Assembly: GCA_964478885.1 (NCBI GenBank)
Contig: CAYZKT010000003.1
Location: 1 to 44,889, forward strand
From: an uncultured Syntrophaceae bacterium
GTDB lineage: Bacteria > Desulfobacterota > Syntrophia > Syntrophales > UBA2192
Length of the DNA stretch: 44,889 nt
Reading direction: 5' to 3'
Made by a program: the position numbers and the translations under genes
The notes under the pieces: generated by a model
The model's input: only the letters and a program-made list of their open reading frames with translations
What the model was told of the DNA's origin: nothing
The model's database searches: none
Part shown: one piece after another, positions 4,303-21,048 of the stretch
Numbering within the stretch: position 1 is the first letter of the stretch
Layout: every line of letters starts with the position of its first letter

Positions 4303-4499
4303 TACCCGCGCCGTGCCGCTTCCCCATCCCCTCGGGTGTCCGTCCCACCCCATCACCTCGCGCTTCTTTTTTCCAATTGACAATTACCCGGTTTTTCGAT
4401 ACTTCTGGCGCGATTTTGCGCATTTGACAGAGAGGCGCAGGTCAACGGTTTCCGTCCATTTATATTCCGCGTGATGCATGTCCAAGGAGGGAGGGTTTC

Positions 4500-5824: not shown

Positions 5825-5859
5825 AGAGCGCCGGTTATCCAGGCCGGCGCTCTTTTTTT
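5825..5859 (+). terminator. intrinsic terminator between convergent genes
   Basis: Perfect 10-bp stem AGAGCGCCGG / CCGGCGCTCT with a 9-nt loop, followed by T7. It sits exactly between the MFS stop and the stop of the minus-strand operon. Confidence 0.75.
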
Positions 5860-7018
5860 ACCTTCGGGCAATCGCCCGGAGGATCGGCCCGCCATGGCGG
5901 CCGGCCATGTGCAGCGGTCTGAAGAGGTAATAGAGGGGGGAGAGCGGATCGGGCAGGGCCGAGGGGTTCCACTCGCCGGCGGCCAGCGTCGCCAGGAGCC
6001 TGCCGGCAAAGAGAAGCTGATCCCGCCTGCGATCCTTCGACTTCAGGTAGAAGAGGTACCGTGCCGGGTCCACGTCCGGGTCCACGGGGGTCTTCGCGAT
6101 GACATCCCGGGCCCGCCGCGCCAGGACCCTAACCATGAGGTCCGCCTCGATCCGGTCCGCGATCTCCTTCGGCAGGCAGGCACCCGTCAGGCGCTCGGCC
6201 AGGAGAAGCCCGAGCAGCAGGAGCCTCGTCACGCCGCAGCGCCCGGCAAGGTCGAGCGCCCGCAAAAGATCCGGGGGCGTCGGCGACGCGAGCAGGCCCG
6301 CCACGTCGCAGACCCAGCCCAGCTTGCACCACAGGTGCTTCGAGCCGTGCACGCAGAGCATCACGAGAGTTTCTTCCAGCGGGAGAACCGGATAATCCAT
6401 TCCGGCCCACGCTCGCCTCTCCAGCCTGGACCAGATACCGACCTTCCCGTGGTCGAACCCGAAATACCCGGGCACGACGGCCCATTGAAGCTCGACCTGC
6501 AGCTTCCCGTCGCGGCGTACGAAGGCCGTCTCGTATTCGGTTCGCCGGTGGGCCGCAAGTCGAGGCCCGACAAGCTCGGTTTGTGCCCTGTACCCCTGCA
6601 CATCGAGGACTTTCACGGCCCTGTGCAGCGTTTCCCCGGGGATGAGGATGTCCAGGTCCTTCGACTGCCGATATGCCGGATCACCATACAGCATGACGGA
6701 AAGGGCCGGCCCCTTGAAGGGGTATGCGGGGATGCCGGAAGACTCGAAGGCTTTCAGGATACGGGACAGTTCCGTGGCGAGCAGGAGCGACCGGACCGTG
6801 TTATTCTGATGAAGGCCGCGGAGGCGGTTTGCCGCGGCGCGGGGAACGGCTACGTTGAGAACGCCCGGAAGCGTCCTGCAAACAAGCGGGACCACGTTGT
6901 GCCACTCACAGAGGCCGGGGAAACGGTTCCAGTCGACACACTCCGGCACCGGCACCGTTTCACCCTTTCGGAAGGCGCCCCGGACACAGGTAAGCAGCAA
7001 TTCAGTTTCCGGGCGCAT
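5858..7018 (-). CDS. nucleotidyltransferase family protein (NTP_transf_5-like, the type seen in RiPP/lasso clusters)
   Basis: 386 aa starting MRPETELLLTCVRG...DWNRF..LCEWH.VVPLV, with a central SKDLDILI motif. It is the last gene of the operon and overlaps the upstream GT2 gene by 17 nt. Confidence 0.65.
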   Translation of the reverse strand: MRPETELLLTCVRGAFRKGETVPVPECVDWNRFPGLCEWHNVVPLVCRTLPGVLNVAVPRAAANRLRGLHQNNTVRSLLLATELSRILKAFESSGIPAYPFKGPALSVMLYGDPAYRQSKDLDILIPGETLHRAVKVLDVQGYRAQTELVGPRLAAHRRTEYETAFVRRDGKLQVELQWAVVPGYFGFDHGKVGIWSRLERRAWAGMDYPVLPLEETLVMLCVHGSKHLWCKLGWVCDVAGLLASPTPPDLLRALDLAGRCGVTRLLLLGLLLAERLTGACLPKEIADRIEADLMVRVLARRARDVIAKTPVDPDVDPARYLFYLKSKDRRRDQLLFAGRLLATLAAGEWNPSALPDPLSPLYYLFRPLHMAGRHGGPILRAIARR

Positions 7019-8024
7019 AGGGGAACACCTCCGTCGCCGGATCCCGTCCTGCGACAGCCGTAACGGATCGTACCGACCCGTTCAGAAGGGGCTGGAGCTT
7101 CCGGGCGTAGAGCCGTGGGATGACATGCGCCGGGTGCATCACGGACGCAGCAAGCAACGCCACGATCATCCCGAGCGGGCGCTGTTCGGCATAGTGCAGG
7201 GCCGCCCGCTGGTAGAGGCGTTCGCCCGCCTCCCGTCGGAATACTCGAGCCCGCTCGACGACAGGGAGTCCCTTCTCTCTCTCGACGAAGTCGCCGAGTG
7301 TCGGTTCCGGTAGTCCGTGTACCCTTGCCTCGCCGCAGGCGATTGCCCACCGGTGCAGCATCCTCTGCCGGGCATTCTGCGTCATCGTGAGCGACTCCCC
7401 GTGCAACCGGTAGAGAAGCAGGGGCTCGGAAACCTTGAGCATCAGGTGCCCTTTCTCCACCATGCGGATCCACAGGTCCACATCTTCGGCCGGCGAGAAG
7501 GCCTCCCGGTAGCCCTCCATGGCAAGGACGGTCTGACGATGCATCAGGGTGGAGGAATTGACGAAGTAGATGGGGCGGTTTTCCCGGACAAGCCGGTCAT
7601 ACTCGGCAGGCGTAAACGGGCCTTCCGTTCCCACGAGACCCAGGGGCTTTCCCGCGTGGTTGATGAAACAGGCGAGCGTTCCGACGATCTTCGTCTCCGG
7701 GTTTCGGCGCAGGAAGGCGATTTGCCGCTCGATTTTCTCCGGGAGGAAAACGTCGTCGGCGTCGAGGCGCGCCGCCCAATCGCAGCGGGCTTCCTCGAGG
7801 CCCCGGTTCCCCGCGGCGGCCACACCGCGGTTCTCCTGGCACAGGCAGCGGACGCGGGGGTCCCCGTCTGCGTAACGTCGGATGATCGAGGCCGTCGCAT
7901 CCGTGGAGCCGTCATCGACGAGCAGCAGCTCCAGGTCCCTGTGCGTCTGCGCCAGAACGCTTTCGACGGCCTGAGCCAAATATTTCTCCCCGTTATGAAC
8001 GGGTATGACGACGGACACTTTCAT
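7002..8024 (-). CDS. family 2 glycosyltransferase
   Basis: 340 aa with MKVSVVIPVHNGEKYLAQAVESVLAQTHRDLELLLVDDGSTD and a later LDADD motif, a classic GT2 (GT-A) signature. Confidence 0.85.
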   Translation of the reverse strand: MKVSVVIPVHNGEKYLAQAVESVLAQTHRDLELLLVDDGSTDATASIIRRYADGDPRVRCLCQENRGVAAAGNRGLEEARCDWAARLDADDVFLPEKIERQIAFLRRNPETKIVGTLACFINHAGKPLGLVGTEGPFTPAEYDRLVRENRPIYFVNSSTLMHRQTVLAMEGYREAFSPAEDVDLWIRMVEKGHLMLKVSEPLLLYRLHGESLTMTQNARQRMLHRWAIACGEARVHGLPEPTLGDFVEREKGLPVVERARVFRREAGERLYQRAALHYAEQRPLGMIVALLAASVMHPAHVIPRLYARKLQPLLNGSVRSVTAVAGRDPATEVFPYAPGN

Positions 8025-9906
8025 AGGGGATGATCTTGCCTTTTTTCCCGTCGGGGATCAGCTGGCACTCGGCGAGTTTCCGATAGGTGTCGTTCGTTCG
8101 CAGAAGCTCCGCGTGCGTGCCCTCGGCGACGAGGCGGTTTTCGTTCAACACCAGGATGCGGTCGCAGTCGGCAAACGTCGACAACCGGTGAGCGACGACA
8201 AAGAGCGTCTTGCCGCGGGTCTCGCGGGGGAGCGCCCGGAAGATCGACTTCTCCGTCAGGCCGTCGAGGGCCGCCGAGGGCTCGTCGAGGATGAGGATGT
8301 CAGGGTCCTTCACAAGCGCCCTGGCTATGGCAAGCCGCTGCTTCTGCCCTTCGGATAGATTCACGCCCATCTCGCCCACCTCGCTTCCGTATCCACCGGG
8401 AAGGGTCATGATGAAATCGTGGATGCCTGCAACGCTCGCGGCGCGGATGACCTCTGTCTCAGCGGCGCCGGGGTTGCCATAAAGAAGGTTTTCCAGGACC
8501 GTCCCGGAAAGGAGAATGGGGGCTTGCGCAACGTAGCCGATCCGTTTCCGCAGCGACCGGACGTCGTACTCCGATGCGGGCTTGCCGTCGTAGAAAATCT
8601 GGCCTCCCGTCGGATTGTAGAACCGCAGCAGGAGGCTCAGGAGCGTCGTCTTGCCCACGCCGCTCGGCCCCACGACGGCGATGTGTTCGCCCGGGCTGAC
8701 GCGGAAGGATACCTCGCTGAGCACGGGGTTTTTCGGGTCGTATTCGAAGGAGACGTTTTTGAACTCGACACCTCCTTCGAGCGCTTCGACCCTTTCACCC
8801 TTCTCCTCATGTTCTTCCGGCATCACATCCAGCAGGGCCGTGAGGCGTTCGAGCGATGCCCGGATATTCTGCATCTGCAGCCCCGTCGAGGTGAGTGACT
8901 GGGCCGGGCCGAAGACGCGGCCCAGGTAGGCCTGGAAGGCAAAGAGGGACCCCAGGCTCCAATGCCCCGTGATGACCCAGTAGGCGCCGATTGCGAAAAC
9001 GCAGAAGTTGACGAGGCTCGGCGTCGACGAAAGGGCAAGCCCCGTCACGGCGCCCACGACGGAGCGCTCCGCCGAGACCCGGAAGACCTGCCGCATGCCG
9101 TTCAGGATGCCCGCGACGGACTTCTTCTCGGCGGCGAAGGCCTTGACCAGCGGCATGGCGCTGAGTGTTTCCTGGAAGCCGCTCCTGTAGCGGGCATTCT
9201 CCTCGTTGCCCGCATGGTTCAGGGCATGCATCCGGTCGGAAAAAAACCGCAGGACAATCAGAAAAACCGGCACGGCGACGAGGGCCGCCAGCGCAAGCCT
9301 CCACTCGAGCCAGAACAGGAGGCAAAGCCCGCCGATGAAATACAGGATGTTCGTCAGGATGCCGACGAGGTTTCCCGACAGAAACCAGGTCACGCCTCCG
9401 ATGTCGCCTGTGATGCGCGCCATGAGATAGCCCGTCTGGTTCCGGTCGAAGAAGGACTTGGGAAGGCTGAAGGAGTGCTCCAGAACCGTCCTCTGGATGT
9501 CGAGGGTGACGTCCTGGCTGTAGCGCAGGAAGAACCAGCTCTGGAAAAGACCCATCCCGCGCGAGAAGAGGGCAAGGCCCACCATGACAAGGAGCACCCA
9601 GGGAAGAAGCGAAAGCTGTTTGCCCAGGATGACGTCATCGATGACAAACCGTGAGACAAGCGGCATGGGGAAGGCCATCAGGGCGTTAAGAAAGATAAAG
9701 CCTGCGCCCAGGGCCCCCTTCTTCCAGTGCCGCCGGAAAAACGGCAGGTGCCGGCGCAGGTTCGCTCCGATCCCGGCATAGGACTTCCCCCCCGCAATCC
9801 GGTCCTCCGGCGCCTTCCGCGCAAGCCCGCTTTTTAGATATTCAATCCAGGATTTCATGGCCAGAAAAAGGGGACCGTCCCCATGGATCCAAGATGCCAG
9901 TTTCAT
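7993..9906 (-). CDS. ABC exporter, fused permease/ATP-binding protein (MsbA-like type I exporter)
   Basis: 637 aa with an N-terminal 6-TM domain. It has Walker A GPSGVGKTT, signature LSEGQKQR and Walker B ILILDEP. No C39 peptidase domain is evident. An alternative start is M17 at 9858. Confidence 0.85.
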   Translation of the reverse strand: MKLASWIHGDGPLFLAMKSWIEYLKSGLARKAPEDRIAGGKSYAGIGANLRRHLPFFRRHWKKGALGAGFIFLNALMAFPMPLVSRFVIDDVILGKQLSLLPWVLLVMVGLALFSRGMGLFQSWFFLRYSQDVTLDIQRTVLEHSFSLPKSFFDRNQTGYLMARITGDIGGVTWFLSGNLVGILTNILYFIGGLCLLFWLEWRLALAALVAVPVFLIVLRFFSDRMHALNHAGNEENARYRSGFQETLSAMPLVKAFAAEKKSVAGILNGMRQVFRVSAERSVVGAVTGLALSSTPSLVNFCVFAIGAYWVITGHWSLGSLFAFQAYLGRVFGPAQSLTSTGLQMQNIRASLERLTALLDVMPEEHEEKGERVEALEGGVEFKNVSFEYDPKNPVLSEVSFRVSPGEHIAVVGPSGVGKTTLLSLLLRFYNPTGGQIFYDGKPASEYDVRSLRKRIGYVAQAPILLSGTVLENLLYGNPGAAETEVIRAASVAGIHDFIMTLPGGYGSEVGEMGVNLSEGQKQRLAIARALVKDPDILILDEPSAALDGLTEKSIFRALPRETRGKTLFVVAHRLSTFADCDRILVLNENRLVAEGTHAELLRTNDTYRKLAECQLIPDGKKGKIIPYESVRRHTRS

Positions 9907-9950
9907 GCCCGATGCGAAAGGGGCCTGTCCCCTTTTTCATCATCATGTCA

Positions 9951-10538
9951 TCAAGGCAGGGTTCGCTCATCCACGAAGATCCGAAAGGGCCGCCGGATCG
10001 TCCAGAAGCTGAAGCCTGAGGGGCGCCGCCCGATTATGCGCCTTCCCAGGACAAGCTGCATCTCCCTTGCCCCGTCGCGCTCGAAGGCGATGACTCTCGG
10101 ACGCAGGGGGGGAGGAAGAAGCGCCCGGAAAATCCCGCAACGGGCAAGGCCCCGGTAGCAGGGGGTCAGGATGTAGGACGCCAGATGATCCGCCCTTCGG
10201 GCGGCGCGGATGCAGGCGGCAAGCTGGCGCCCCGCGAGGCCGCCTGCAACGGGCATCAGCTTCCCCCTGCGCTCTACCTCCACGGCGCGGCCGACGAGAT
10301 CCGCCTGCCAGACGATCCAGCTATCCGCGTGCGGGTTCGCGTCCCCCCTCGTCCGGATCCCGTCAGGCCCGGCGGAGATGACACGGTGTACGACGCGCTC
10401 CGTCTGCCACGAAAGGACGAAGATGATCACATCCCCCGGCCTTACTTCTTCGGCACGGCAGGGGATGAAGCGGATCCGGTCCCCCGGCCGGAAAAGGGGC
10501 CGCATGCTGTCGCCGCGGCAGAAGAGTTCACCTTCCAT
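9951..10538 (-). CDS. S24/S26-type serine peptidase-like protein (candidate leader peptidase)
   Basis: 195 aa. The N-terminus MEGELFCRGDSMRPLFRPGDRI carries the GDSM.P nucleophile motif of LexA/signal-peptidase-fold enzymes, followed by VVHRVI. The C-terminal ~90 aa have no family I recognise. The start overlaps the upstream gene by 11 nt. Confidence 0.55.
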   Translation of the reverse strand: MEGELFCRGDSMRPLFRPGDRIRFIPCRAEEVRPGDVIIFVLSWQTERVVHRVISAGPDGIRTRGDANPHADSWIVWQADLVGRAVEVERRGKLMPVAGGLAGRQLAACIRAARRADHLASYILTPCYRGLARCGIFRALLPPPLRPRVIAFERDGAREMQLVLGRRIIGRRPSGFSFWTIRRPFRIFVDERTLP

Positions 10539-11460
10539 GCGCCGTCAACTCCCGTCGACCTCGGATTAGGCCTCTATCCGCTTTTTCCAGAGCAACCTCG
10601 ATCGTCTCCCAGAAGCGCCCCGTGAGGCTCAGACGGAGGATATGGGACGGAACGGAGGCTGCCAATCCGGCGGCATTGGCGAAGATCTCGCCCTTCAGGG
10701 GTAAGGTTTCGAAAGCACGGGACGTCGTCCGCACCGAGTTGAAGATCGTCTCGGCCGCATGGGCGAGGATGACCGTCGCCGCGGCACGGCCCGCAGGCAC
10801 CGCTTCGTCAACGCCGGCCTGGGCAAGGAAAAAGACCGCAGACAGATCGACGCCGCGGTTGATATCCCACGCGTCGCCATCGGATCCGACGCCAACGCGG
10901 CTCCACGTCGGCAGGGGATGTACAGCGAATCCCCCTTCCCGCTTTCGCACGGCCAGTGCGAGATCATCGCCGAGGACCGTCCATTTCCGCGGCAGCCGCA
11001 GGCAGGCCGTGGACTTCCCGACGCCGCTTCTGCCGACGAGCAGCACCCCCCGGCCGTCACGCTCCACGAGTGCGGCGTGGAGCGGAAGACCGCCCCGGCG
11101 CACCGTCGATTCGTACAGGGGCATCAGGGCATGCCTCATCTGCTCCCTGACCCGGCTGGAATTATCGGTCCGGTGAAGCCTGCAGACACTCTCGCGAAGC
11201 GTTTCATGGCGCCAGACTTCGAGATGTGGGAATATACCGACTCGCCAACCGCCCCCGAAGCAGCCGCGCGGCGGCAGCGCACGGCCGCCGTTCCCCGCAG
11301 CCCCACCATGCGGAAATGTCTCGAAGCGGATCATGCAGTCCGGATCGGCCTGCGACGGTGCGAGCGAGAGCAACCGTGCAAACCCGTCGGCCCACTCCAG
11401 GGCCTCTTTGGCGGGGCGTATACCCCAGGATTGACCGTCGGAAAGGCTAAACGAGTACAT
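10528..11460 (-). CDS. HPr-kinase-like P-loop protein, paralogue 1 (ScmC / HprK-related type)
   Basis: It has LLVGRSGVGKSTACLRLPRKWTVLGDDLA, matching the HprK C-terminal P-loop plus DD motif. The start is taken at MYSFSLSDG (ATG 11458-11460), which overlaps the peptide stop as TGATG and gives 310 aa. The track ORF extends to 11478. Confidence 0.7.
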   Translation of the reverse strand: MYSFSLSDGQSWGIRPAKEALEWADGFARLLSLAPSQADPDCMIRFETFPHGGAAGNGGRALPPRGCFGGGWRVGIFPHLEVWRHETLRESVCRLHRTDNSSRVREQMRHALMPLYESTVRRGGLPLHAALVERDGRGVLLVGRSGVGKSTACLRLPRKWTVLGDDLALAVRKREGGFAVHPLPTWSRVGVGSDGDAWDINRGVDLSAVFFLAQAGVDEAVPAGRAAATVILAHAAETIFNSVRTTSRAFETLPLKGEIFANAAGLAASVPSHILRLSLTGRFWETIEVALEKADRGLIRGRRELTAHGR

Positions 11461-11870
11461 CACGCCCCCGCGTTGCAATTTTCCAGATCACCGTAGCCGT
11501 AGACATTCGATCCCCCGTCACAGCAATAATTCCCCGCCCACTCCCCGCTCCAGCACATTCCCGACGTGATGTTTCCATCGCTGCACTGCTCGTAGGCCTG
11601 ACCGCCGGGAACGCAATTGCACCCGCCAACCCATGGGACACCTCCCGTGGACGAGTAATCGGCCCCGGTTTCGCAGCAGGAGTCGCAGCCGCAGGCGGAG
11701 AGTCCGGATCCGCACCATTCCGCCCCGGTGCCCGTCCCGCAACGCGTGGTTTCCTTGCAGCTTCCCAACGCCTGATACGTTCCGTTTCTGCACGAGATGA
11801 ACTCCCCGCACACCTGGGGTCCCTTCATGTCGACGAGAAGAGGGGGTTCGTAGCGAAATCTTGTTTTCAT
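11460..11870 (-). CDS. Cys/Gly-rich precursor-like peptide 1 (136 aa, 16 Cys)
   Basis: MKTRFRYEPPLLVDMKG... leader is shared with the two paralogues. The ATG forms an ATGA overlap with the stop of the upstream kinase-like gene (11867-11870). It fills the gap between same-strand genes. Confidence 0.7.
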   Translation of the reverse strand: MKTRFRYEPPLLVDMKGPQVCGEFISCRNGTYQALGSCKETTRCGTGTGAEWCGSGLSACGCDSCCETGADYSSTGGVPWVGGCNCVPGGQAYEQCSDGNITSGMCWSGEWAGNYCCDGGSNVYGYGDLENCNAGA

Positions 11871-12799
11871 TGAAATCCTGTTCTTCTCTTATCAAGGAGC
11901 CAGTCCCCTTCTTCCAGCGCTTCCTCGATCCTCTCCCAGAACAGGCCCGTGAGACTCAGGCGAAGGCGGTACGCGGGGATCGCCAAGGCTGCCGCCGCCG
12001 CGTTGTGGTAGAGGGCCTTTTTCACGCTTGCATCTTCCCCGTTCGGGAACCCGAAATCGATCGACCGGAACACCTCGAGCGCCGACCCGGCCATGGAAAT
12101 TGCCGCAGCGCTCTTTTTCAGATGCCGGCATTCGTCCCCGGGCGATTGCGCCAGGAAAAACACGGCGACAAGGGGAACCGACGCCTCCGACCGGCACCTT
12201 CCCGACTCGAAGCCTTTCCGAATGGTACTCCACGTCGGGAGCGGATGGGCCCGGTAGTTTCCATACCCGTCGCGCACCACCAGGCAGAGATCGTCACCCA
12301 GCACCCGCCAGGAATGCGGAAGCCTGCGACAGGCGGTGGATTTTCCCTCGCCGCTCCGGCCCGCCAGGATCACGCCCGATCCGCCGATCTCGATCAGGGC
12401 CCCGTGAAGGGGCAAACCCCCGCGCCTCAGGGTCTCCAGATAAACGGGCATCAGCGCGCGGCGCATCTGGCGGCTGCGTCCAGGCTCGTCCACATCGGGA
12501 ATCACTTTGCAGAGGACCTCCCGGATCTCCGGGTGCTCGAAGAGCGCCTGGTCCGGGTACTCGCGTATTCTCCAGTCCCCGGCTGTCGGGGCCTTTGCGT
12601 AACGGCACAGTACAGGCTCGAAGAACTCGCCGGGCTTGCGTGACATGAGCTCGACATGGACATGCCGACTTGCCCGGCCTTGGCCCGGCAGCAGGCCCAT
12701 GGCCGACGCAAATTCCGCCAGCCAGCCTTCGGTTGGCCCATCAGCCTCGAAGGCCCAGACGGCATCATGAGTGAAAGGCATATGAAACCTCAAAGGCAT
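11867..12799 (-). CDS. HPr-kinase-like P-loop protein, paralogue 2
   Basis: It has ILAGRSGEGKSTACRRLPHSWRVLGDDLC. The track ORF runs to a GTG at 12922, but the first 41 codons are rich in A/T-ending codons, unlike the rest. The ATG at 12799 (MPLRFHMPF...) gives 310 aa, the same length as paralogue 1. Confidence 0.65.
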   Translation of the reverse strand: MPLRFHMPFTHDAVWAFEADGPTEGWLAEFASAMGLLPGQGRASRHVHVELMSRKPGEFFEPVLCRYAKAPTAGDWRIREYPDQALFEHPEIREVLCKVIPDVDEPGRSRQMRRALMPVYLETLRRGGLPLHGALIEIGGSGVILAGRSGEGKSTACRRLPHSWRVLGDDLCLVVRDGYGNYRAHPLPTWSTIRKGFESGRCRSEASVPLVAVFFLAQSPGDECRHLKKSAAAISMAGSALEVFRSIDFGFPNGEDASVKKALYHNAAAAALAIPAYRLRLSLTGLFWERIEEALEEGDWLLDKRRTGFQ

Positions 12800-12912
12800 G
12801 ATTTTTTCATCCCCCGACACGGCCTTTGCGACCTTCTCCCCAAAGCGGCCTCCCGGTCTGTGTCCACTGTAAGAAGGAAAAGGCATCCGGCCGGCAATAC
12901 TGACAGCGAATA

Positions 12913-13263
12913 TCAAAAACACTGAGTTCCTCCGGTTTCACACAGATACGAGGCGCGAGTGCCGGCCTCGCAACGGTATCCGGCCGAAGACCCGCCACTG
13001 CACCAGCACATGACCTGGATGCCTCCCTCGACGACGTCGCCGCTGTAGCAACAGGAGTAGGTGCACCCCGAGGGGTGGCAGGCGTTGGTGCCGTTCGTGC
13101 AGCCGTTTGCCTCGGTGCCATTTCCACAGGCGGCACTGACAACGCAGCTTCCCTCCGTGCAGTTCTCCACGTTGTATCCACCGTTGCACGAGGTATACCC
13201 AAGGGCGGAATGGTCGCGCATGTCGACCAGGACCGGTTTTTCATATCGCACATGCTTGTTCAT
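12913..13263 (-). CDS. Cys/Gly-rich precursor-like peptide 2 (116 aa, 14 Cys)
   Basis: MNKHVRYEKPVLVDMRDHSALGYTSC... has the shared leader and the shared SCC / CxC pattern. AGGA lies about 9 nt upstream of the ATG. Confidence 0.7.
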   Translation of the reverse strand: MNKHVRYEKPVLVDMRDHSALGYTSCNGGYNVENCTEGSCVVSAACGNGTEANGCTNGTNACHPSGCTYSCCYSGDVVEGGIQVMCWCSGGSSAGYRCEAGTRASYLCETGGTQCF

Positions 13264-13376
13264 TTCGATGATCCTGCCGTGTGGGTTCTCTAGTTCTTTG
13301 CCACCCTTTCAGCACACGGGTCCAGCCATGAGGGGCTACAGATTCCGGATCAGCAAGCACAACCTGGCAACGCCGT

Positions 13377-14321
13377 TTAAACCCATCCGCATGCTCTCTC
13401 CTCGTGCCGTCTCCCTTCATGCCGGCCGGGAAACCCATCGCCGCCCAATACCGCCTCGATCTTTTCCCAGAACCGGCCCGTGAGGCTCACGCGGAGCAGG
13501 TAGGCAGGCACGGCCAGCGAGAAGTCGGCGGCATTCTCGAAGACCTGCGTCCCGATATCCGGTTCCTTTCCCACCAGCTTGAACGGCCCCACGGACCAGA
13601 AGACCTCCATGGCCGAGCGGCGGCAGGCCACGGCGGCTTCGCCCTTACCCACCGGCACCGCCACATCTTCGTTTGACTGCTCGAGGAAGAAGATCGCCTC
13701 CAAGGGCACCGCTCGAATGACGTCCCACGAACCCTGCTGTCCGGCGCGAAGGGCGCTCCAGGTCGGAAAAGCGTGCGCACAGTACTTCCCTGTTGCATCG
13801 CGGACCACGAGGGCCAGATCATCGGCAAGGCCCCTCCACGGGGACTGGAGACGCCTGACGCATGTCGACTTGCCGATGCCGCCGCGGCCGGCCAGGAGAA
13901 TCCCTCTGCCGTCTCGCTCCACGAATGCGGCGTGGACGGGAAAGCCGCCCTTCCCGAGGATCTTCAGGTAAAGGGGCAGAAGAGCATGGCGCATGTCTTC
14001 GATTTCTTTCCCTTCGCTTCCCTTCGGTGGCAGTAGGCACACGATGTCCAGCCCTGCCGGTTCGTTTTCGATCACGGCGCCCGGAATCCGGCGGAAATCC
14101 CACAGCGGCCCTTCCCGGGTCGGGATACCCGACACCCCGGGAGTCCTCTTCATGCGGGCCGAGCGATGGAACGTGACGGTCTCTGCGGGGCAGTTGCAGG
14201 AAATGGGAGGAAGGCCCAGGATGAATGCATACTGAGAAAGCCATTCTTCCGTCCCAGTCGTCGATCGCAGAAACCATCGTGTACCGTCGACAAGTCGAAG
14301 TTCGTACATCCCTTTATCCAT
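13377..14321 (-). CDS. HPr-kinase-like P-loop protein, paralogue 3
   Basis: It has LLAGRGGIGKSTCVRRLQSPWRGLADDLA. The C-terminal motif RVSLTGRFWEKIEAVL is shared with paralogues 1 and 2. An alternative start at M5 (14309, MYELRLVDG) would also give 310 aa. Confidence 0.7.
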   Translation of the reverse strand: MDKGMYELRLVDGTRWFLRSTTGTEEWLSQYAFILGLPPISCNCPAETVTFHRSARMKRTPGVSGIPTREGPLWDFRRIPGAVIENEPAGLDIVCLLPPKGSEGKEIEDMRHALLPLYLKILGKGGFPVHAAFVERDGRGILLAGRGGIGKSTCVRRLQSPWRGLADDLALVVRDATGKYCAHAFPTWSALRAGQQGSWDVIRAVPLEAIFFLEQSNEDVAVPVGKGEAAVACRRSAMEVFWSVGPFKLVGKEPDIGTQVFENAADFSLAVPAYLLRVSLTGRFWEKIEAVLGGDGFPGRHEGRRHEERACGWV

Positions 14322-14351: not shown

Positions 14352-14741
14352 TCACGCACAAGCGCCGTTGCAGTCCTCCAGGGCCATCGATCCATCGATG
14401 CAGACAGCCGACACCCGGCCGCCCGTGTAGCAGATATACGCTGCATTCGCCCCCGAAATGCACTGGCAACCAGACACGGTACCCCTCCCGCTCCCGTAAA
14501 ACCCCACCATCTGTCCATCCGCGCAGCACGTGTAGCAGTTTGAACTGGTTGAGCAGGCCCCGATTCCGTTTTCACAACCCCCCGTATATTGGCCATCCTG
14601 GCAGAAGCTGGTCGGAATGCAGGAACCGAGGGAGCACTCGAAATTGCACGAGCCGCCGTCGCAGGTACCCGAGTAGCCCAAGGCGCTGCCCGTGTTCATG
14701 TCGAAGAGAAGCGGGGGTTCGTACCTGAATCGTCCGGTCAT
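14352..14741 (-). CDS. Cys/Gly-rich precursor-like peptide 3 (129 aa, 16 Cys)
   Basis: MTGRFRYEPPLLFDMNTGSALGYSGTC... is the first of the three peptide genes and lies 59 nt downstream of the second rSAM/SPASM gene. Confidence 0.7.
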   Translation of the reverse strand: MTGRFRYEPPLLFDMNTGSALGYSGTCDGGSCNFECSLGSCIPTSFCQDGQYTGGCENGIGACSTSSNCYTCCADGQMVGFYGSGRGTVSGCQCISGANAAYICYTGGRVSAVCIDGSMALEDCNGACA

Positions 14742-14800: not shown

Positions 14801-15997
14801 TCATCCTCGCGCCGCAGAGGCCCCAACCGGAGGTGCCTGATCAGCTTGCTGGCGGGCACCCTGCAGCCTCGTCCCCGGGAAGAGCCCCTCACGCCTGGCC
14901 TCCTCGCAGAACCAATAGGGCGCCCAGAGGCTGCGGCTGCGGTAGTAGTTCTGGGCAACGCAGCTCCCCAAACAGATCCCTTTCATGAGGCAGTCCCCGC
15001 AGATCCCTTCCAGCTTCCCGGGCATCCCTTCACGGATTTCACGCAGGACGGGGTTGTCTTTCCACACCCCGGAAAGGTCATCCTTCGCTGCATGGCCGAA
15101 GACCAGCTCGGGGACAGACTCGCCGATCCCGCAGAGGGCGTAGGACCCGTCGGCCAGGACACCCAGGATGCCGATAATTCCGCAGACGCCGCAGCCCGAC
15201 CCATCGCGGCCGTACATTCGGCCCAGAGACCGGAAGGCGGCGGGGTGGGAATAGAAGAGTCGAAGCTTCGTCGCACGGGAAAGTCTGCCCTCGACGTCCT
15301 CGCCCAGCTCAACCAGTTCCCTGACGGAAAGTGTCTCGCCGGCCTGGTGCATCTTCACGCCCCGCGCCGTGGGCTGGACGATGTTGAACTTGACCGACGA
15401 GGCACCCTCGCTTTCGGCAAGGCGCACGAGCGCCTCGATCTGGCCCACGTTCCGGCGCATCAGGGTCATGATCACCTGGGGCCGTATGCCCGCCGCGACG
15501 AGGTTCCGGATCCCCTGCAACGCGGCCTCGAAGCAGCCGTGGACGCCCCGGACCCACTCGTGCGTCTCTGCGTCGGCCCCGTCGAGGCTCACGGAAATGT
15601 GATAGATCCCGGAGCGGGCGAGGTCCCTTGCCAGTTCAGGCGTGCAGAGAACCCCGTTGGTCTCCGTGCTGAACCGGATCTTTTCGTCCCGGAGGATCGC
15701 GAGGATGTCCCCGATACGGGGATGCATGAGCGGCTCGCCGCCCGTGAGCTTCACGGACGAGAGGCCGAGAGGTCCTGCCTGTTGCAGGATGCGCCGAAAC
15801 AGGTCCGGATCGATGGCCCGGTACTGTCGCTTTGCCGTCTGGTGGGGCGGCTCGATCCAGCAGTGCCGGCACCGCAGGTTGCATCCCTCGGTAAGATAGA
15901 AATAGAGCGTACTGAGAGGTGGAACAGCACCGCCTGCAGCCTTGGCCGAAGCGTCGCCCTTGAAGACGGACCATGTCTTTCCGGAACTGACCATCAT
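14801..15997 (-). CDS. radical SAM/SPASM domain protein (PqqE-like peptide maturase)
   Basis: 398 aa. It has the CNLRCRHC CxxxCxxC cluster, GGEPLMH, and a C-terminal Cys-rich SPASM region (CGVCG...LCG...CGDCLMKGICLGSC). The start forms an ATGA overlap with the upstream gene. Confidence 0.85.
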   Translation of the reverse strand: MMVSSGKTWSVFKGDASAKAAGGAVPPLSTLYFYLTEGCNLRCRHCWIEPPHQTAKRQYRAIDPDLFRRILQQAGPLGLSSVKLTGGEPLMHPRIGDILAILRDEKIRFSTETNGVLCTPELARDLARSGIYHISVSLDGADAETHEWVRGVHGCFEAALQGIRNLVAAGIRPQVIMTLMRRNVGQIEALVRLAESEGASSVKFNIVQPTARGVKMHQAGETLSVRELVELGEDVEGRLSRATKLRLFYSHPAAFRSLGRMYGRDGSGCGVCGIIGILGVLADGSYALCGIGESVPELVFGHAAKDDLSGVWKDNPVLREIREGMPGKLEGICGDCLMKGICLGSCVAQNYYRSRSLWAPYWFCEEARREGLFPGTRLQGARQQADQAPPVGASAARG

Positions 15998-17676
15998 AAC
16001 CCTCCCCGACCGGCCGCCCTCGGGCGAGATGCCCGCGGTTCGAGCCTGACCAGATAAACGTTCTTTTGCTTGCAGGATTTGCGGCAGCAGGACTTCGCAC
16101 GCGGTGGTGGCATAAAGGCAGGCGGTGACTGCCCGTCATAGGGATTGCCTCCCCCGATGCTCAACGGATTGGTCGTCCACACGTAGATCCCGTCGATGCC
16201 CCGTTCGCGAAGACGCCTGATCAGCCTCTCTCGTTCCCCGGGGTTCCCGGAAACGAGGAAAACCCGGTCGAAGAAGAGAGGGCCCGCATGCTCCATGCTC
16301 CCGGCCTCACTGAACAGGATCACATCCCCCGCCGAGGTGTGCTGTTTGAGAAACTCGATTCGCCGGGCATTGTAGTCCTTGTACATCCAGAGATCGGTGC
16401 GCGCGTCCTGAAAGCTGTTCAACAGGGCCACGCCGCCGAAGAAAAGGAGCACCACGTACATCCCTCGGGAGTCGAAGATCCGCCGGTGATCCGCTCCCAG
16501 CAGAAGGACCACGAAGGGGACGAGCGGCAGCCAGACGGCAAGGACGCGGCTGACGACGGGCCTATGGATCACGGCGCCGCAGAGAACGCCGAGGATCACC
16601 GTGCAGACCAGGATCGGCTCGAGAGTCTCTTCCCGCCTCATCAAGCGGTCCATCCGTCCCGGGAAGCCGTAGAAACCGAACAGGACGGCAGGAAAGAACG
16701 CCATGAGATGGGACACGGTGATCCGTGCGGCCGAGAGCAGAACGGCGGCAAACATCAGCAGGACGGGCAGGACGGTCATGACGGCCCGCCCGACCGGGGT
16801 AACGTCACTGCCTCGCGACGCCGCAAGAAGGACGAGGGACAGGACCATGCTTCCGGCAAACAGGGCGAAGCGGATCCCCGAGAGCCCGTAGAAGGGCAGC
16901 ATCAACTTCAGGTAGGACCCGGGAAACCCTCCGTGAAAAATCGCATCGTGCAGCACGATAGTGGCAAGCGCCAGCGCGGCCCCCGCCGCATAAGCGGCCA
17001 ATTCCCTCCATCGCTTCTGCAGGGCGAGAACGGTTCCCGCAGAAAGGAGATAGGAGAAGGCCGCGAACAGGAAGTCCAGGCTGGCAAGGACGGAGACCCC
17101 GGCCAGGAAGGACGACCCGGCAAGATCGGCCCGGCCCTCGGTTCCCGCCTTGAAGTAACGGACGAGCAGGAAGAGCCCCATGACGATCAACAGGAGGGCA
17201 AGGGATTGCCCGGTGAATCTGAACGCGAGGAGAAGGACGGGTGAGCCGCCCAGGAAGAGTGCAAGGAGGAGATAATGAAGAACGCCCCGCGGCATCATCC
17301 GGTCCAGGGTCACGCCGAGGGACAGCGCGGCGAGAAATACGAACAGGACCGGCGTGAAATCGACGCTCCGCTCGCCGAATACGGGGTGGAACAAGCTCGC
17401 GACGAAGGGAAACAGCGGGGGGGGGACGGCGTAGAGCCTGTCGCCGCGGGACTCGAAGAGGTCCCGCGGTCCCGCGAGATCTTTCGGCTCGAAGCCGAAG
17501 CGGAAAGCCGGCGCATCGATCGCAAGTGCCCCGTTCAGGGAGAAGTTCTTCATCTGGACGTAATGGACGCCCTCGAGGTTGGTTTGCAGGCCGGGGGGCG
17601 CGAGGAAAAAGCACAGGCCCGCAAGCGCCGCGAGGACGGCAACAAGGAAGATCGTTTCCCCGGGGTTTCTCGTCAT
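15994..17676 (-). CDS. polytopic integral membrane protein with C-terminal soluble domain (possibly GT-C/ArnT-like)
   Basis: 560 aa from the ATG at 17674-17676 (MTRNPGETIFLVAVLAALAGL...). The longer track ORF to 17826 would overlap the upstream rSAM gene by 134 nt. It has at least 10 hydrophobic segments. The first-loop motif EGVHYVQMKNFSLNG resembles the first periplasmic loop of GT-C enzymes. The fold assignment is tentative. Confidence 0.5.
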   Translation of the reverse strand: MTRNPGETIFLVAVLAALAGLCFFLAPPGLQTNLEGVHYVQMKNFSLNGALAIDAPAFRFGFEPKDLAGPRDLFESRGDRLYAVPPPLFPFVASLFHPVFGERSVDFTPVLFVFLAALSLGVTLDRMMPRGVLHYLLLALFLGGSPVLLLAFRFTGQSLALLLIVMGLFLLVRYFKAGTEGRADLAGSSFLAGVSVLASLDFLFAAFSYLLSAGTVLALQKRWRELAAYAAGAALALATIVLHDAIFHGGFPGSYLKLMLPFYGLSGIRFALFAGSMVLSLVLLAASRGSDVTPVGRAVMTVLPVLLMFAAVLLSAARITVSHLMAFFPAVLFGFYGFPGRMDRLMRREETLEPILVCTVILGVLCGAVIHRPVVSRVLAVWLPLVPFVVLLLGADHRRIFDSRGMYVVLLFFGGVALLNSFQDARTDLWMYKDYNARRIEFLKQHTSAGDVILFSEAGSMEHAGPLFFDRVFLVSGNPGERERLIRRLRERGIDGIYVWTTNPLSIGGGNPYDGQSPPAFMPPPRAKSCCRKSCKQKNVYLVRLEPRASRPRAAGRGGL

Positions 17677-17692
17677 TCCATTCCTCTTCGGC

Positions 17693-18805
17693 TCAACCCA
17701 GCAGGGCCCGGTCCGGAAGCCTGCCCCCCTCGGCGAGGAACTTCCGCAGGCAGGCGTCGGGGCTCGGGTGGTTGACCTCGCCCGTAAGCGTGTAGGAGAG
17801 CCCCGGGCAGTTGCCGGTACAGGCATTCACGTAAGGGCACCCCTCGCAGAAGGAAAAGTTCGTCAGGGGGATCTCCTGCCTTCGCCTGAGGGTGCTGAGC
17901 GCTTCGTGGTCTCTCCATACCATCCCGAGGTCGTCGCGGTTGATGCGGCCGAGTTCGATGTGGGACAGCATCGTGCAGGGTGTGATGACGCCGTCGGCCC
18001 GCACGGCGAGGCCCGACCGGTAACAGCCGCACCCCGTCAGATAGCCCCGTTTCGGGGCCGTCAGCTCTTTTTTCCCGAGCCGGGCTTCCTCCATGTCGAG
18101 CCAGCCCCGCGCCTCGGCCAGCGGCCCCGCCATGGCCTGGATCCGGCCGTTGTATTTCCTAGTCAGGCGAAGGAGCGTCTCCATGGCTATCATCCGCTCA
18201 TCCGTGGTGAGCTGCACCATTTCGGCGTTTTTCCTGCACAGGCCCATGGCCCCTGCGGAATTGGTCCCGAAGGAGGGAAGGCCGATGTCTTCCAGCAGGA
18301 ACCGGGCGACGGCGTCGAGGTCGTGGACGTTCTTGCGGTGGATCGTGACGCGCACCGCCGCGTGAATGCCATGCCGACGAAGGGTCATGAGACCCTCGAT
18401 CGCCTTCGCGAAGCTCCCCCTGCCCCGCATGGCGTCGTGGCTTGAGGGCATGGAGCCGTCGATGGAGACCTGGACGTAGTTGCAACGTTTTGTCGAGACG
18501 AGAAAAGCCGCCATGTCGTCGTCGATCAGCGTCCCGTTGCTGAGGACGGCAAAGCGCATCCGGTTGCGGACGATGCCGTCGACGATCTCCTTCAGGTCCT
18601 CCCGGATGAAGGGCTCGCCCCCCGCCAGCGTCACCTCCGTGACGGCGCAACGGTTCAGTTCCTCGAAAAAGCGCAGCCACTCTTCGGCCGGCAGATCTTT
18701 ACCCGCATCGCCGGGGCTCTCGAAATGATAGCAGTATCGGCACCGCAGGTTGCAGCGGTTCGTGATATCGATGTCGACCTTCTTCGGAGTCCGCATGAGT
18801 TTCAT
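17693..18805 (-). CDS. radical SAM/SPASM domain protein (PqqE-like peptide maturase)
   Basis: 370 aa. It has the CNLRCRYC cluster, GGEPFIRED, and SPASM cysteines (GCGC...PC...CEGCPYVNACTGNCPG). Confidence 0.85.
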   Translation of the reverse strand: MKLMRTPKKVDIDITNRCNLRCRYCYHFESPGDAGKDLPAEEWLRFFEELNRCAVTEVTLAGGEPFIREDLKEIVDGIVRNRMRFAVLSNGTLIDDDMAAFLVSTKRCNYVQVSIDGSMPSSHDAMRGRGSFAKAIEGLMTLRRHGIHAAVRVTIHRKNVHDLDAVARFLLEDIGLPSFGTNSAGAMGLCRKNAEMVQLTTDERMIAMETLLRLTRKYNGRIQAMAGPLAEARGWLDMEEARLGKKELTAPKRGYLTGCGCYRSGLAVRADGVITPCTMLSHIELGRINRDDLGMVWRDHEALSTLRRRQEIPLTNFSFCEGCPYVNACTGNCPGLSYTLTGEVNHPSPDACLRKFLAEGGRLPDRALLG

Positions 18806-18809: not shown

Positions 18810-19121
18810 TCAGCCTCGATCCCGAGTATCCACTCCTCGTCCCTGATCTAATTCATATCCCACCAGCCCCTGCGCCTCCAGCGCCGCGATGAACTGGCGG
18901 GCGTGCGCGCCGGCGTCCTCGGGCACGTCGTCGGCCTCCTCGCGGAGCCTTCCGACGATGGAATCCGCATCGTGTTTCCCGTCGAGGAGCTTCCAGATGA
19001 AAACCCCCGTGGGGTTGAGTCCGAAGGCGTTTCCCGTGTCGGGGTCGAAGAGGATCGCCCAGTCGTCGAATTCCTCGCGAAGGACGATCAGGGGGTTGGC
19101 AATGGGATTTTTGACATCCAC
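18810..19121 (-). CDS. PqqD family peptide chaperone (RRE-type)
   Basis: I start it at GTG 19119-19121 (VDVKNPIANPLIVLREEFDDWAILFDPDTGNAFGLNPTGVFIWKLLDG...), preceded by AAGGAA at 7-nt spacing, giving 103 aa. The W.L.DG and I...L motifs are typical of PqqD-like RiPP recognition elements. The track ORF upstream of this start has non-coding-like composition. Confidence 0.7.
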   Translation of the reverse strand: MDVKNPIANPLIVLREEFDDWAILFDPDTGNAFGLNPTGVFIWKLLDGKHDADSIVGRLREEADDVPEDAGAHARQFIAALEAQGLVGYELDQGRGVDTRDRG

Positions 19122-19359: not shown

Positions 19360-20646
19360 GTGGAGAAATTCGACGTCATCGTCGTGGGGGCAGGACTGGC
19401 CGGGCTGGCGGCGGCATGGACGCTGGCCGGCGAGGGCGTCGAGGTCGTCGTCCTCGACCGGGGCGACTACCCCGGCTCCAAGAATGTCTCCGGCGGCCGC
19501 CTCTACCTGAACCCCGTCCGCGACCTCTTCCCCGGCCTCTGGGACGAGGCCCCCCTGGAGCGGGCCATCGTTCGCGAGGGGGCCACCCTCATGGCCCGCA
19601 ACCGCTCCTTCACCTTCCACTACACCGGCAGCGAGCTGCGAATCGACAAGCCCCAGAGCTACAGCATCCTCCGCTCGAAATTCGACCGCTGGTTCTCCGA
19701 GCGGGTCGAGGAGCGCGGCGGGATGATCCTCGTCAAGACTCTCGTGACGGACCTCCTCCGCGAAAAAGGCAGGGTCTGCGGCGTCGTCGCCGGGGGGGAC
19801 GAGCTGCGGGCCGACGCGGTCATCGCCTGCGACGGGGTCCTGTCTCTCATCCCGGAGAAAGCCGGCCTGCGCGCCCCGGGGCGCCCGCACGACTATGCCG
19901 TCGGCATCAAGGAAGTGATCCGCCTCGAGCGCCCCGTGATCAACGACCGCTTCGGCGTGGCGGACGGCGAGGGGACGGCGCACCTCTACGCGGGAGACAT
20001 CACGAAGGGCCTCTTCGGCGGCGGCTTTCTCTACACCAACGGGGAGAGCCTGAGCCTGGGGTTGGTCCTCTCCATCGAGGACATGGCGAGGGAGGAAGCG
20101 GCGGGCGATGCGCCCGCGCTCTTCGAGGCCTTCAAGGCACGGCCCGAGATCGAGCCCCTCATCCGGGGAGGGCAGACGGTGGAATACGGCGCCCACGTAA
20201 TTCCCGAGGGCGGTTACCGGTCACTTTCCCGCCTCTGCGGCGACGGGATTCTCGTGGCGGGAGATTCGGCAGGCTTCGCCCTGAACCTCGGCTTCACCGT
20301 CCGCGGCATGGAATACGCCCTGGCCACGGGGTACCACGCTGCGAAGGCCGTCATCGAGGCAAAGAAGGCGGGCAGGTACGATGCCGCGGCGCTGGCCGGC
20401 TACCAGAACTCGCTGGAGGAAAGCTTCGTTTTGCAGGATTTCAAGACCTTCAAGGATACCCCCCGCGTGCTGTCGAACCCGCACCTGTTCGGCCACTACC
20501 CGGAGCTCATCGGGAATCTCCTGCGCGATCTCTACACCGTCCCCGCAGGGCCCAAGTCGCCCGTCTTCACGACGCTGCGCAAGCACCTGACGCTCAGCGA
20601 GCTCTGGACCATGCTCCTGGACGCAAAGGAGGTCACGAAGATATGA
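19360..20646 (+). CDS. fixC: FAD-dependent oxidoreductase FixC (ETF-quinone oxidoreductase-like)
   Basis: 428 aa, GTG start. It has the FDVIVVGAGLAGLAAA dinucleotide fold, and fixX follows in an ATGA overlap. Confidence 0.8.
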   Translation: MEKFDVIVVGAGLAGLAAAWTLAGEGVEVVVLDRGDYPGSKNVSGGRLYLNPVRDLFPGLWDEAPLERAIVREGATLMARNRSFTFHYTGSELRIDKPQSYSILRSKFDRWFSERVEERGGMILVKTLVTDLLREKGRVCGVVAGGDELRADAVIACDGVLSLIPEKAGLRAPGRPHDYAVGIKEVIRLERPVINDRFGVADGEGTAHLYAGDITKGLFGGGFLYTNGESLSLGLVLSIEDMAREEAAGDAPALFEAFKARPEIEPLIRGGQTVEYGAHVIPEGGYRSLSRLCGDGILVAGDSAGFALNLGFTVRGMEYALATGYHAAKAVIEAKKAGRYDAAALAGYQNSLEESFVLQDFKTFKDTPRVLSNPHLFGHYPELIGNLLRDLYTVPAGPKSPVFTTLRKHLTLSELWTMLLDAKEVTKI

Positions 20647-20918: not shown

Positions 20919-20926
20919 AACAACCC

Positions 20927-21048
20927 GGGTACAGGGTTCAGGGTTCAAGGCAAAAGCAGTGGCTCGTGGTTAGTGGCCAGTGCGATGAAATGGTCACCGC
21001 TCATCAATCACGAACCACCAGTCACTAGTCACGAATCACTAATCACTG
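20927..21048. repeat. intergenic tandem-repeat-armed hairpin (fixX/acd gap)
   Basis: It has (CAGGGTT)x2 at 20931-20948, then a G-rich arm CAGTGGCTCGTGGTTAGTGGCCAGTG opposed by CACCAGTCACTAGTCACGAATCACTAATCACTG. The terminal CAGTG/CACTG pair perfectly. Confidence 0.6.

Follow-up and report, generated by a model that had tools for sequence, protein, structure and literature searches.

A cassette with three precursor–ScmC modules

We analyzed a 44,889-nucleotide stretch of contig CAYZKT010000003.1 from an uncultured Syntrophaceae bacterium (hereafter, the window), which carries on its minus strand a SynChlorMet (SCM) cassette extending from about position 19100 to 5858 (Table 1). Within the cassette, each of three genes for Cys-rich peptides is followed by its own paralogue of a P-loop protein, an arrangement that a first-pass annotation made from the sequence had proposed and that we confirmed. 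The three P-loop proteins, ScmC1, ScmC2, and ScmC3, match the curated equivalog TIGR04249 (“SynChlorMet cassette protein ScmC”) over model positions 1–292 with 208–234 bits, relative to a cut-off of 125 bits. The proteins are thus members of the ScmC family, which the annotation had named among several possibilities. In BLASTP comparisons among themselves, the three proteins are 38–47% identical (E = 1e-58 to 2e-62).

The neighboring genes support the same assignment. The window exceeds the cut-offs of TIGR04248, TIGR04250, and TIGR04251 as well as that of TIGR04249, and ScmD, ScmE, ScmF, and ScmC are encoded on the same strand within 9 kb, in the order D-E-F-(peptide)-C that also characterizes 79 related loci, which we retrieved by scanning one genome per species for back-translated motifs and annotated with hidden Markov models built in this analysis. 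Both assignments, to the ScmC family and to the SCM cassette, are thus established. ScmD scores 123.8 bits against TIGR04248 (cut-off 100) and 9e-18 against the Pfam PqqD model, and its runner-up NCBIfam match is the lasso PqqD chaperone NF033530. By Pfam, ScmF matches Radical_SAM and, below threshold, SPASM (20.4 bits; gathering score 21.5).

The ScmC lengths of 310 aa predicted at first hold for all three proteins with starts at M7, M42, and M5, and public gene calls likewise give 310 aa for ScmC3 (P0001). The range originally assigned to the modules, 10528–14321, holds the three ScmC genes, with the third peptide gene lying just outside it. The genes are tightly packed, with gaps of 42–113 nt or overlaps of 1, 4, or 11 nt; the ATG of ScmC1 has one base in common with the stop codon of peptide 1, and the peptidase gene overlaps the 3′ end of ScmC1 by 11 nt. 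Promoter-like and terminator-like sites showed no excess between the modules, their counts being at shuffle expectation. Given this packing and the lack of excess internal sites, the peptide and ScmC genes most likely form one operon.

Table 1. Genes and other features of the SCM cassette in the window, in the order of transcription. ORF, open reading frame; RRE, recognition element for ribosomally made peptides with post-translational modifications (RiPPs).
Feature	Position	Strand	Remarks
ScmD, PqqD-type leader-peptide chaperone (RRE)	18810..19100	-	ORF reaches 19247, start uncertain
ScmE, radical SAM/SPASM enzyme	17693..18805	-	TIGR04250 600.9 bits (cut-off 400)
Membrane protein M, polytopic	15994..17826	-	likely start Met50 at ~17679
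ScmF, radical SAM/SPASM enzyme	14801..15997	-	TIGR04251 597.5 bits (cut-off 400)
Precursor peptide 3	14352..14741	-	129 aa, 16 Cys; leader MTGRFRYEPPLLFDM...SALG
ScmC3, 310 aa	13377..14309	-	ORF to 14321 (314 aa); start M5 at 14309; TIGR04249 234.3 bits
Precursor peptide 2	12913..13263	-	116 aa, 14 Cys
ScmC2, 310 aa	11867..12799	-	ORF to 12922 (351 aa); start M42 at 12799; TIGR04249 217.0 bits
Precursor peptide 1	11460..11870	-	136 aa, 16 Cys; start overlaps ScmC2 stop by 4 nt
ScmC1, 310 aa	10528..11460	-	ORF to 11478 (316 aa); start M7 at 11460; TIGR04249 207.6 bits
S24/S26 signal-peptidase-like protein, presumed leader peptidase	9951..10538	-	GDSM motif; TIGR02228 52.6 bits (cut-off 51.85)
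Two terminator-like hairpins	9864..9938	-	GGGGACnGTCCCC then T-run; between peptidase and ABC genes; 4 matches vs 0.18 expected
ABC exporter, permease and ATPase fused, no peptidase domain	7993..9906	-	ABC_membrane and ABC_tran; true start probably near 9855
GT2-family glycosyltransferase	7002..8024	-	NCBIfam glycosyltransferase matches; position kept in long-peptide subclade
NTP_transf_5 (PF14907) nucleotidyltransferase-like protein	5858..7018	-	Pfam E = 2.7e-53; last cassette gene

Precursor peptides

The three peptides are homologous (BLASTP E = 2e-10 to 6e-20, with composition correction on), and 11 Cys columns are invariant across them. Their N-termini share the pattern R-Y-E-x-P-x-L-x-D-M, the leaders reading RYEPPLL, RYEKPVL, and RYEPPLL, and a leader motif of this YxxPxL type recurs in the peptides of dozens of related loci. 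Each precursor consists of a predicted leader of about 22 aa that ends in small-x-Gly, followed by a core of 95–115 aa with 14–16 Cys. Leader cleavage would plausibly occur after this conserved small-x-Gly near residue 22 (SALG, VCG), a site predicted from the -3/-1 rule of signal peptidases.

The differences between the peptide ORFs and their orthologues fall mostly at third codon positions, as in coding sequence; peptide 3, for example, differs from its orthologue in the related locus L001 at 15, 15, and 39 sites of the first, second, and third positions. In public assemblies, peptides 1 and 3 are annotated as genes, peptide 3 without a name, and we found no model or name for the precursor family in NCBIfam, Pfam, or public annotation. 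To our knowledge, the TIGR family description states that the SCM precursor has not been identified. It is assignable to the gene directly upstream of ScmC: such a peptide precedes 60 of 93 full-length ScmC genes, and several of the rest lie at contig edges or have their peptides elsewhere in the locus.

Beside the long precursors of the window, related loci encode short SCM precursors built of 3–5 repeats of roughly C-x-x-G-[TSN]-[SGN]-[AP]-x(2-4), for example, at L024:9622-9834, L031:2759-2920, L016:9657-9848, and L046:9615-9806. The Ser or Thr that recurs regularly in these repeats could serve as a site of radical SAM cross-linking or of phosphorylation.

Active site and predicted fold of ScmC

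All of the Walker A and acidic motifs quoted in the first-pass annotation were found in the three paralogues (GRSGVGKSTACLRL...LGDDL, GRSGEGKSTACRRL...LGDDL, and GRGGIGKSTCVRRL...LADDL), as was its C-terminal motif, with the correction that the first position is Arg rather than [RV] (R-[LV]-SLTG-[RL]-FWE.IE..L). To place these motifs in the family, we used a profile of 113 ScmC sequences, mostly 35–45% identical. The full series H...GKST...DD...HPxPTWS...FFLxQ...SLxGRFWE is complete in the three paralogues and invariant or at least 90% conserved in the 113 sequences, and H179-x-x-P-T-W-S, FFLxQ, and SLxGRFWE are invariant motifs of the family's own. The active-site residues, numbered as in ScmC3, are H126, G146-K147-S148-T149, and D163-D164. 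H126, K147, and T149 are present in all 113 sequences, D163 in 112, and D164 in 103 (the remaining 10 have Glu). The tetrad of His, Lys, Asp, and Asp is thus conserved, and the HprK-type Walker A and acidic motif proposed at first are intact.

The closest solved relative of the ScmC profile is the HPr kinase/phosphorylase (HprK/P) structure 1jb1 (E = 2e-5). The alignment places H126 on His140, G146-K147-S148 on Gly160-Lys161-Ser162, and D163-D164 on Asp178-Asp179, with one gap only, one residue long, between the His and the Asp-Asp pair. An AlphaFold2 model of ScmC3, computed from the 113-sequence alignment, has two domains (predicted local distance difference test score, pLDDT, 87.5; predicted template modeling score, pTM, 0.86), with low confidence only at residues 50–90 and in the tail. 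Searching the PDB with this model in Foldseek returned phosphoenolpyruvate carboxykinase (PEPCK) and HprK/P as top matches (probability 1.00), with TM-scores of 0.45–0.50 when normalized on the HprK catalytic domain. On this modeling, the P-loop domain of ScmC is confidently predicted to adopt the HprK/PEPCK fold. Given the conserved residues, the proteins neither have a degenerate P-loop nor fall into an unrelated family, two outcomes that would have spoken against the first-pass annotation.

The family itself is large: 972 representatives were recovered at E ≤ 1e-30 among 1.84 billion, corresponding to about 970 clusters at 50% identity. Some representatives are longer than the window proteins, including P0204 (600 aa) and P0194 (494 aa), and the location of the ScmC domain at residues 355–597 of P0204 shows that fusions to other domains exist.

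Related loci and the proposed pathway

The genomes that carry the 79 related loci belong to the Desulfobacterota (Syntrophales and others), Chlorobiaceae, anammox bacteria, several candidate phyla, Methanothrix, Methanocella, and Methanomicrobiales. Their canonical gene order is D-E-(M)-F-p-C-S-T, where p denotes the peptide, S the peptidase, and T the ABC exporter. The p genes encode a [KR]-Y-E-x-P-x-L leader and a core rich in Cys, Gly, Ser, and Thr. A homologue of the S26-type peptidase directly follows ScmC in most loci, with the ABC exporter conserved after it. Of the 79 loci, 38 have an NTP_transf_5 homologue at most 10 kb from ScmC, as does the window itself.

Four ScmC cassettes have no radical SAM gene (L038:9056-14773, L040:9466-12763, L044:9045-14591, and L059:8114-13282). 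Their ScmC proteins score 265–284 bits by TIGR04249, and the cassettes contain a peptide, ScmD, NTP_transf_5, ScmC, and, variously, the S26 peptidase and ABC exporter, in varying order. The peptides keep the YExPxL leader, and their core is rich in Pro, Asp, and Glu and not in Cys (e.g., ...LLDETAKGYSPEPDPP...). ScmC is one of just two candidate modifying enzymes in these cassettes.

Other loci depart from the canonical layout in their own ways. The four cassettes just described stand directly downstream of large repeat proteins, of which three bear a matching Por-secretion tail. At L007:7854-8477 and L008:7610-8317, a single ORF joins a PqqD (ScmD) domain, a leader, and a Cys-rich core (…KFTYERPMLVDLSG…), and an HDOD-domain gene on the opposite strand lies between this fusion and the ScmC and peptidase genes; no radical SAM gene was found within 10 kb of either. 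In Candidatus Subterrananammoxibius (L013), a 20-kb stretch combines one ScmC with about seven precursor-like genes and two additional ScmE-like genes, a ratio of peptides to ScmC far from that of the window.

The explanation that we favor, with a probability only a little above even (roughly 0.55), is that the window holds an SCM RiPP cassette in which ScmC is a peptide kinase and three ancient peptide–ScmC modules draw on shared maturation and export machinery. It builds directly on the family membership, cassette architecture, fold, and conserved catalytic residues described above and on the co-inheritance of the pairs described below. In the corresponding pathway, the single PqqD-type chaperone ScmD would bind all three precursors through their shared leader, and the two radical SAM/SPASM enzymes, ScmE and ScmF, would cross-link the Cys-rich cores. 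By analogy with the kinases of lasso-peptide clusters, ScmC would act as an ATP-dependent kinase on Ser, Thr, or Tyr of the linear, leader-bearing precursor; the NTP_transf_5 protein may then decorate the phosphate. The S26-type peptidase would remove the leader and the ABC transporter export the product. We infer kinase activity and a peptide substrate because the tetrad, the PqqD protein, the YxxPxL leader, and NTP_transf_5 are common to this cassette and the lasso toolkit, and because cassettes exist that have ScmC without radical SAM enzymes.

Several observations weigh against this interpretation. The likeness of ScmC to HprK is limited to about 77 residues around the P-loop, and the first Gly of Walker A is not conserved across the family. 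Against models of HprK itself, about 45 residues are matched, with 20–27 bits by TIGR00679 (cut-off 240) and 18–25 bits by PF07475 (cut-off 33.3); of the two kinds of model that had been suggested as a check, the ScmC model was thus passed and Hpr_kinase_C matched below threshold only. Precomputed annotation also lists the Pfam family PF27840. Because these scores are so far below the family cut-offs, ScmC is, judged by sequence, not HprK/P proper. The window peptides lack a C-terminal Ser, the target of most lasso kinases: their last residues are A, F, and A, with a Ser or Thr 2–4 residues past the putative cleavage Gly. Finally, our literature search returned no paper, experimental or other, on the SCM cassette or ScmC.

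In a different, though unlikely, role, ScmC would not be a kinase but an NTP-binding partner or chaperone that works at about 1:1 with the peptide, holding the long Cys-rich precursor for ScmE and ScmF or passing it to the S26 peptidase, to which it is coupled in translation. Such a role would resemble the ATP-dependent leader removal of lasso biosynthesis. It is consistent with the 11-nt overlap of the ScmC and peptidase genes and with the status of “C S” as the most conserved gene pair across loci. A stoichiometric role would also explain why gene dosage follows the peptide, and the ScmC N-domain has no recognizable enzymatic role. Nevertheless, the phosphoryl-transfer tetrad is nearly invariant, and nucleotide binding alone would not need the two Asp residues. 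The cassettes without radical SAM enzymes, moreover, offer nothing for ScmC to scaffold for, and the loci with many peptides per ScmC contradict a strict stoichiometry.

Ancient modules inherited as pairs

Tandem ScmC genes are present in nine further loci, concentrated in a Syntrophales-like subclade that has M, GT2, and long precursors with 12–17 Cys. Five of these loci (L001, L004, L005, L009, and L028) have two to four ScmC copies, each with its own peptide ahead of it; in L029 and L034, the peptidase gene separates the ScmC copies with their peptides; and L003 and L012 have two ScmC copies, with an upstream peptide detected for some copies only. The joint duplication of precursor and enzyme, which had been considered uncommon, is thus recurrent in this subclade, and it has a precedent in two-component lanthipeptides.

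The modules of the window are old. The window paralogues are pairwise 16–23% identical in the N-domain, 48–51% in the C-domain, and 32–40% in the peptide cores, which confirms the greater divergence of the N-terminal halves noted at first. Each module has closer relatives in other genomes. Those of module 3 (L001 and L002) are 73–74% identical in the C-domain and 84% and 64% identical in the peptide core. For module 2, the peptide core is 100% identical in Syntrophaceae UBA5744 (L009), where the ScmC2 orthologue, L009_7263, has identities of 91% (C-domain) and 73% (N-domain). Module 1 has relatives in L009, L006, and L021 with C-domain identities of 69–73%; the ScmC1 orthologues include L009_8521, and the core of peptide 1 is 75% identical to that in L009. 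In the protein database, each ScmC has its own orthologue clade (17 clusters at 57–71% identity for ScmC3, 17 at 55–84% for ScmC2, and 13 at 51–61% for ScmC1), whereas identity across types does not exceed 43%.

To follow the pairs, we compared the nearest ScmC and the nearest peptide of 23 modules of the subclade. The two agreed on the partner module in 13 modules, including every pair with a close relative, where about one agreement was expected by chance, and ScmC paralogues from the same locus were never each other's nearest neighbor. The modules occur in different combinations: 3,2,1 in the window; 2,1,X in L009; Y,X in L005; 3,Z in L001; and 3 only in L002. Together, the separate orthologue clades and the varied combinations show that the module duplication is ancient and that what is inherited and exchanged is the peptide–ScmC pair, with the modules plugging independently into shared machinery rather than forming an obligate three-component set. 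A recent tandem duplication was considered and rejected: besides the neighbor relationships above, the DNA repeats between modules are conserved coding motifs only, 60–78% identical.

Pairs that are inherited together and mixed among genomes would also be expected if ScmC kept its own peptide harmless in the producer, for example by phosphorylation, much as in bacteriocin–immunity pairs. Each peptide is inherited jointly with the gene that directly follows it, module combinations vary between genomes such as the window, L009, and L001, and variable module mixing is typical of toxin–immunity pairs. ScmC is, however, a universal, conserved core part of the cassette, present even with a single short peptide, and orphan peptides without an adjacent ScmC exist; we also know of no bioactivity for any SCM product. 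A toxin-plus-protector module is, in our judgment, highly improbable.

Dedication of ScmC to its peptide

The evidence that each ScmC is dedicated to its own peptide is mixed. Three ScmC subfamilies have persisted over a long time, each peptide type occurring or missing jointly with its ScmC type, and this long co-retention suggests, short of proof, that each ScmC prefers the neighboring peptide. Columns that are conserved inside each module type and distinguish the types are found mainly in the catalytic half (20 of 185, compared with 4 of 98 in the N-domain), near the P-loop (140, 143, and 150), at the DD motif (162, 166, and 168), and at 195–197 and 221–241.

The first-pass annotation had read the divergence of the N-domain as recognition of the cognate peptide, and on this point our results disagree with it. 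Even inside one module type, 87 of 98 N-domain columns vary; the domain evolves 1.5–3 times faster than the C-domain between orthologues; and its Mantel correlation with peptide distance is 0.43, compared with 0.48 for the C-domain. As a candidate specificity determinant, the N-domain was rejected, since the orthologue/paralogue divergence ratios, the Mantel correlations, and the type-specific columns all fail to support it. Its divergence is that of a weakly constrained domain.

The proposal of one dedicated enzyme per peptide stands only in part: the pair is co-inherited, but a single partner is not the rule of the family. About seven peptides in L013 and three long peptides in L011 are each accompanied by a single ScmC within 10 kb, and L004, L057, and L074 have orphan peptides, so that several divergent peptides fall to one ScmC. 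Nor does the number of ScmC genes appear to track distinct peptide types, an idea that we examined and dropped: the median identity of peptides that share a ScmC is 0.32–0.38, which does not differ from the 0.34 of peptides with their own. Linkage by itself is expected to make neighboring genes diverge in parallel. Characterized lasso kinases, in addition, are little affected by the peptide outside the target Ser (PMC8498205). All of these points count against dedication, with the proviso that several of these metagenome-assembled genomes have two or more SCM loci, and a ScmC encoded at a distance in the same genome may act on the “orphan” peptides.

It is conceivable, if doubtful, that the ScmC proteins, as kinases or other enzymes, are not peptide-specific and that the peptide–ScmC repeat is simply a unit moved by segmental duplication or recombination between cassettes. 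By way of the common leader and ScmD, every ScmC might then act on every precursor. The conserved leader of the three peptides and the presence of only one ScmD fit this account, as do the genomes that retain several divergent peptides with one ScmC, the N-domain without type-specific conservation, and the low specificity of the lasso kinases just cited. It is harder to reconcile with three subfamilies that have been apart long enough for 37–39% identity, with 13–17 orthologue clusters each, and with the constant association of each subfamily with the matching peptide type wherever similarity suffices to judge. The 20 type-specific columns in the catalytic half also argue for specificity, and redundant copies should decay. 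Under the reading that we favor, the pairs would show cognate specificity.

Neighboring genes and other features

Membrane protein M has no match in Pfam and scores 62 bits against NF047440, below the cut-off of 200, a weak likeness to putative glycosyltransferases. Its homologues lie between ScmE and ScmF in L001–L006, L009, L011, L021, and L028, only in the long-peptide subclade. The extra genes of this subclade are a polytopic membrane protein of about 560–610 aa (weakly similar to LA_3751-type putative glycosyltransferases), GT2, and NTP_transf_5; they hint that its products are glycosylated or nucleotidylated besides being cross-linked.

The short palindrome GAAAAGGGGACnGTCCCCTTTTC occurs twice in the window, at 9864-9885 and 9917-9938, and looks like an intrinsic terminator or a hairpin resembling repetitive extragenic palindromic (REP) elements. 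Its position implies that the ABC gene probably starts near 9855 and not at 9906. Outside the window, the same palindrome lies directly 3′ of many ScmC genes, where ORF read-through gives the false tail “...EKGDSPLF”.

Divergent FixC/ETF genes border the cassette at one end and an MFS gene at the other. The divergent genes (19360-24031, plus strand) encode a FixC/ETF-QO-like flavoprotein, a FixX-like ferredoxin, and the beta and alpha subunits of ETF, followed by a GGDEF diguanylate cyclase gene. Further downstream of the cassette, two minus-strand genes (3730-4383 and 1982-3271) encode proteins of 217 and 429 aa that have no Pfam or NCBIfam match. These two adjoin the cassette downstream in 7–8 related loci (L003, L005, L006, L009, L021, L062, and L065) and may belong to the cassette system.

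Significance and comparison with known systems

The ScmC family was already catalogued in silico. Beyond the database definition, this analysis assigns the precursor, describes a multi-module architecture that is inherited module by module, links the cassette to the kinase, RRE, and nucleotidyltransferase toolkit of lasso clusters, and shows that ScmC cassettes without radical SAM enzymes exist. A broader proposal, which we offer tentatively and with low confidence, is that the family makes a widespread class of phosphorylated, possibly phosphoglycosylated, ribosomal peptides, in which radical SAM cross-linking is an add-on and the Syntrophales-type subclade matches each Cys-rich core of roughly 100 residues with a kinase specific to it, in exchangeable peptide–kinase pairs. 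ScmC retains the catalytic tetrad of proven peptide kinases. If the proposal is true, anaerobic bacteria and archaea would make a phosphopeptide class with a ScmC kinase, a chaperone of the PqqD type, an S26 peptidase, and, in many cases, NTP_transf_5. With its three modules, the window lends itself to the study of enzyme–substrate specificity in RiPP biosynthesis. If the pairs are specific, they could be useful as engineering parts; otherwise, the system illustrates that co-evolution can be imitated by linkage alone.

Compared with the SCM cassette as defined, that of the window has ScmC in triplicate, with a long Cys-rich precursor (116–136 aa) for each copy, and it additionally encodes a GT2 glycosyltransferase, NTP_transf_5, and, between ScmE and ScmF, a membrane protein. 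With HprK/P (PDB 1jb1, 1kkl, and 1ko7), ScmC has in common the catalytic His, Lys/Ser, and Asp-Asp and the PEPCK-like fold. The profile alignment stops shortly after the DD motif, where ScmC has its own invariant H-x-x-P-T-W-S, apparently in place of the signature loop by which HprK contacts HPr. The two differ in the N-domain, the genomic context, and the presumed substrate, which would not be HPr.

In two-component lanthipeptides such as haloduracin and lacticin 3147, LanA1/LanM1 and LanA2/LanM2 provide one synthetase per precursor. The comparison is one of organization: several divergent precursors, a paralogous enzyme for each, and shared export and processing genes. The principle of one enzyme per precursor is, given this precedent, not new. 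The enzyme family and chemistry of ScmC are unrelated to those of the lanthipeptide synthetases, ScmC is accessory while the radical SAM enzymes are shared, and the combinations of modules vary between genomes instead of forming a fixed pair.

The nearest functional comparison is with the HprK-like kinases of lasso-peptide clusters (PadeK, ThcoK, SyanK, BsfK, and PsmK), which have the same His-Lys-Asp-Asp tetrad as ScmC, a motif essential in the lasso kinases (PMC9266682). These kinases act on the linear precursor, mostly on a C-terminal Ser, although BsfK, co-expressed with the RRE protein BsfB1, phosphorylated core Ser3; their clusters encode a PqqD-type RRE and often the nucleotidyltransferase PsmN, which adds a hexose to the phosphate (PMC9266682, PMC8498205, PMC10368454). 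Lasso leaders carry YxxPxL (PMC10368454). A PqqD-type RRE, the YxxPxL leader motif, and a frequent NTP_transf_5 partner are thus features of both lasso clusters and the SCM cassette, and the pairing of NTP_transf_5 with ScmC parallels that of the kinase PsmK with PsmN in pseudomycoidin. Unlike lasso clusters, the SCM cassette has no B2 protease or C cyclase, every gene falling in other families with only the B1-like PqqD component in common, and its maturation is assigned to the radical SAM/SPASM enzymes ScmE and ScmF together with an S26-type peptidase. The window precursors are 5–10 times longer than those of lasso peptides and have no terminal Ser. Against HprK_rel_A (TIGR04352), the nearest proxy for the lasso kinases, ScmC matches over about 47 residues with 28–30 bits (cut-off 200). 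By cluster context, ScmC would stand outside the lasso-kinase group.

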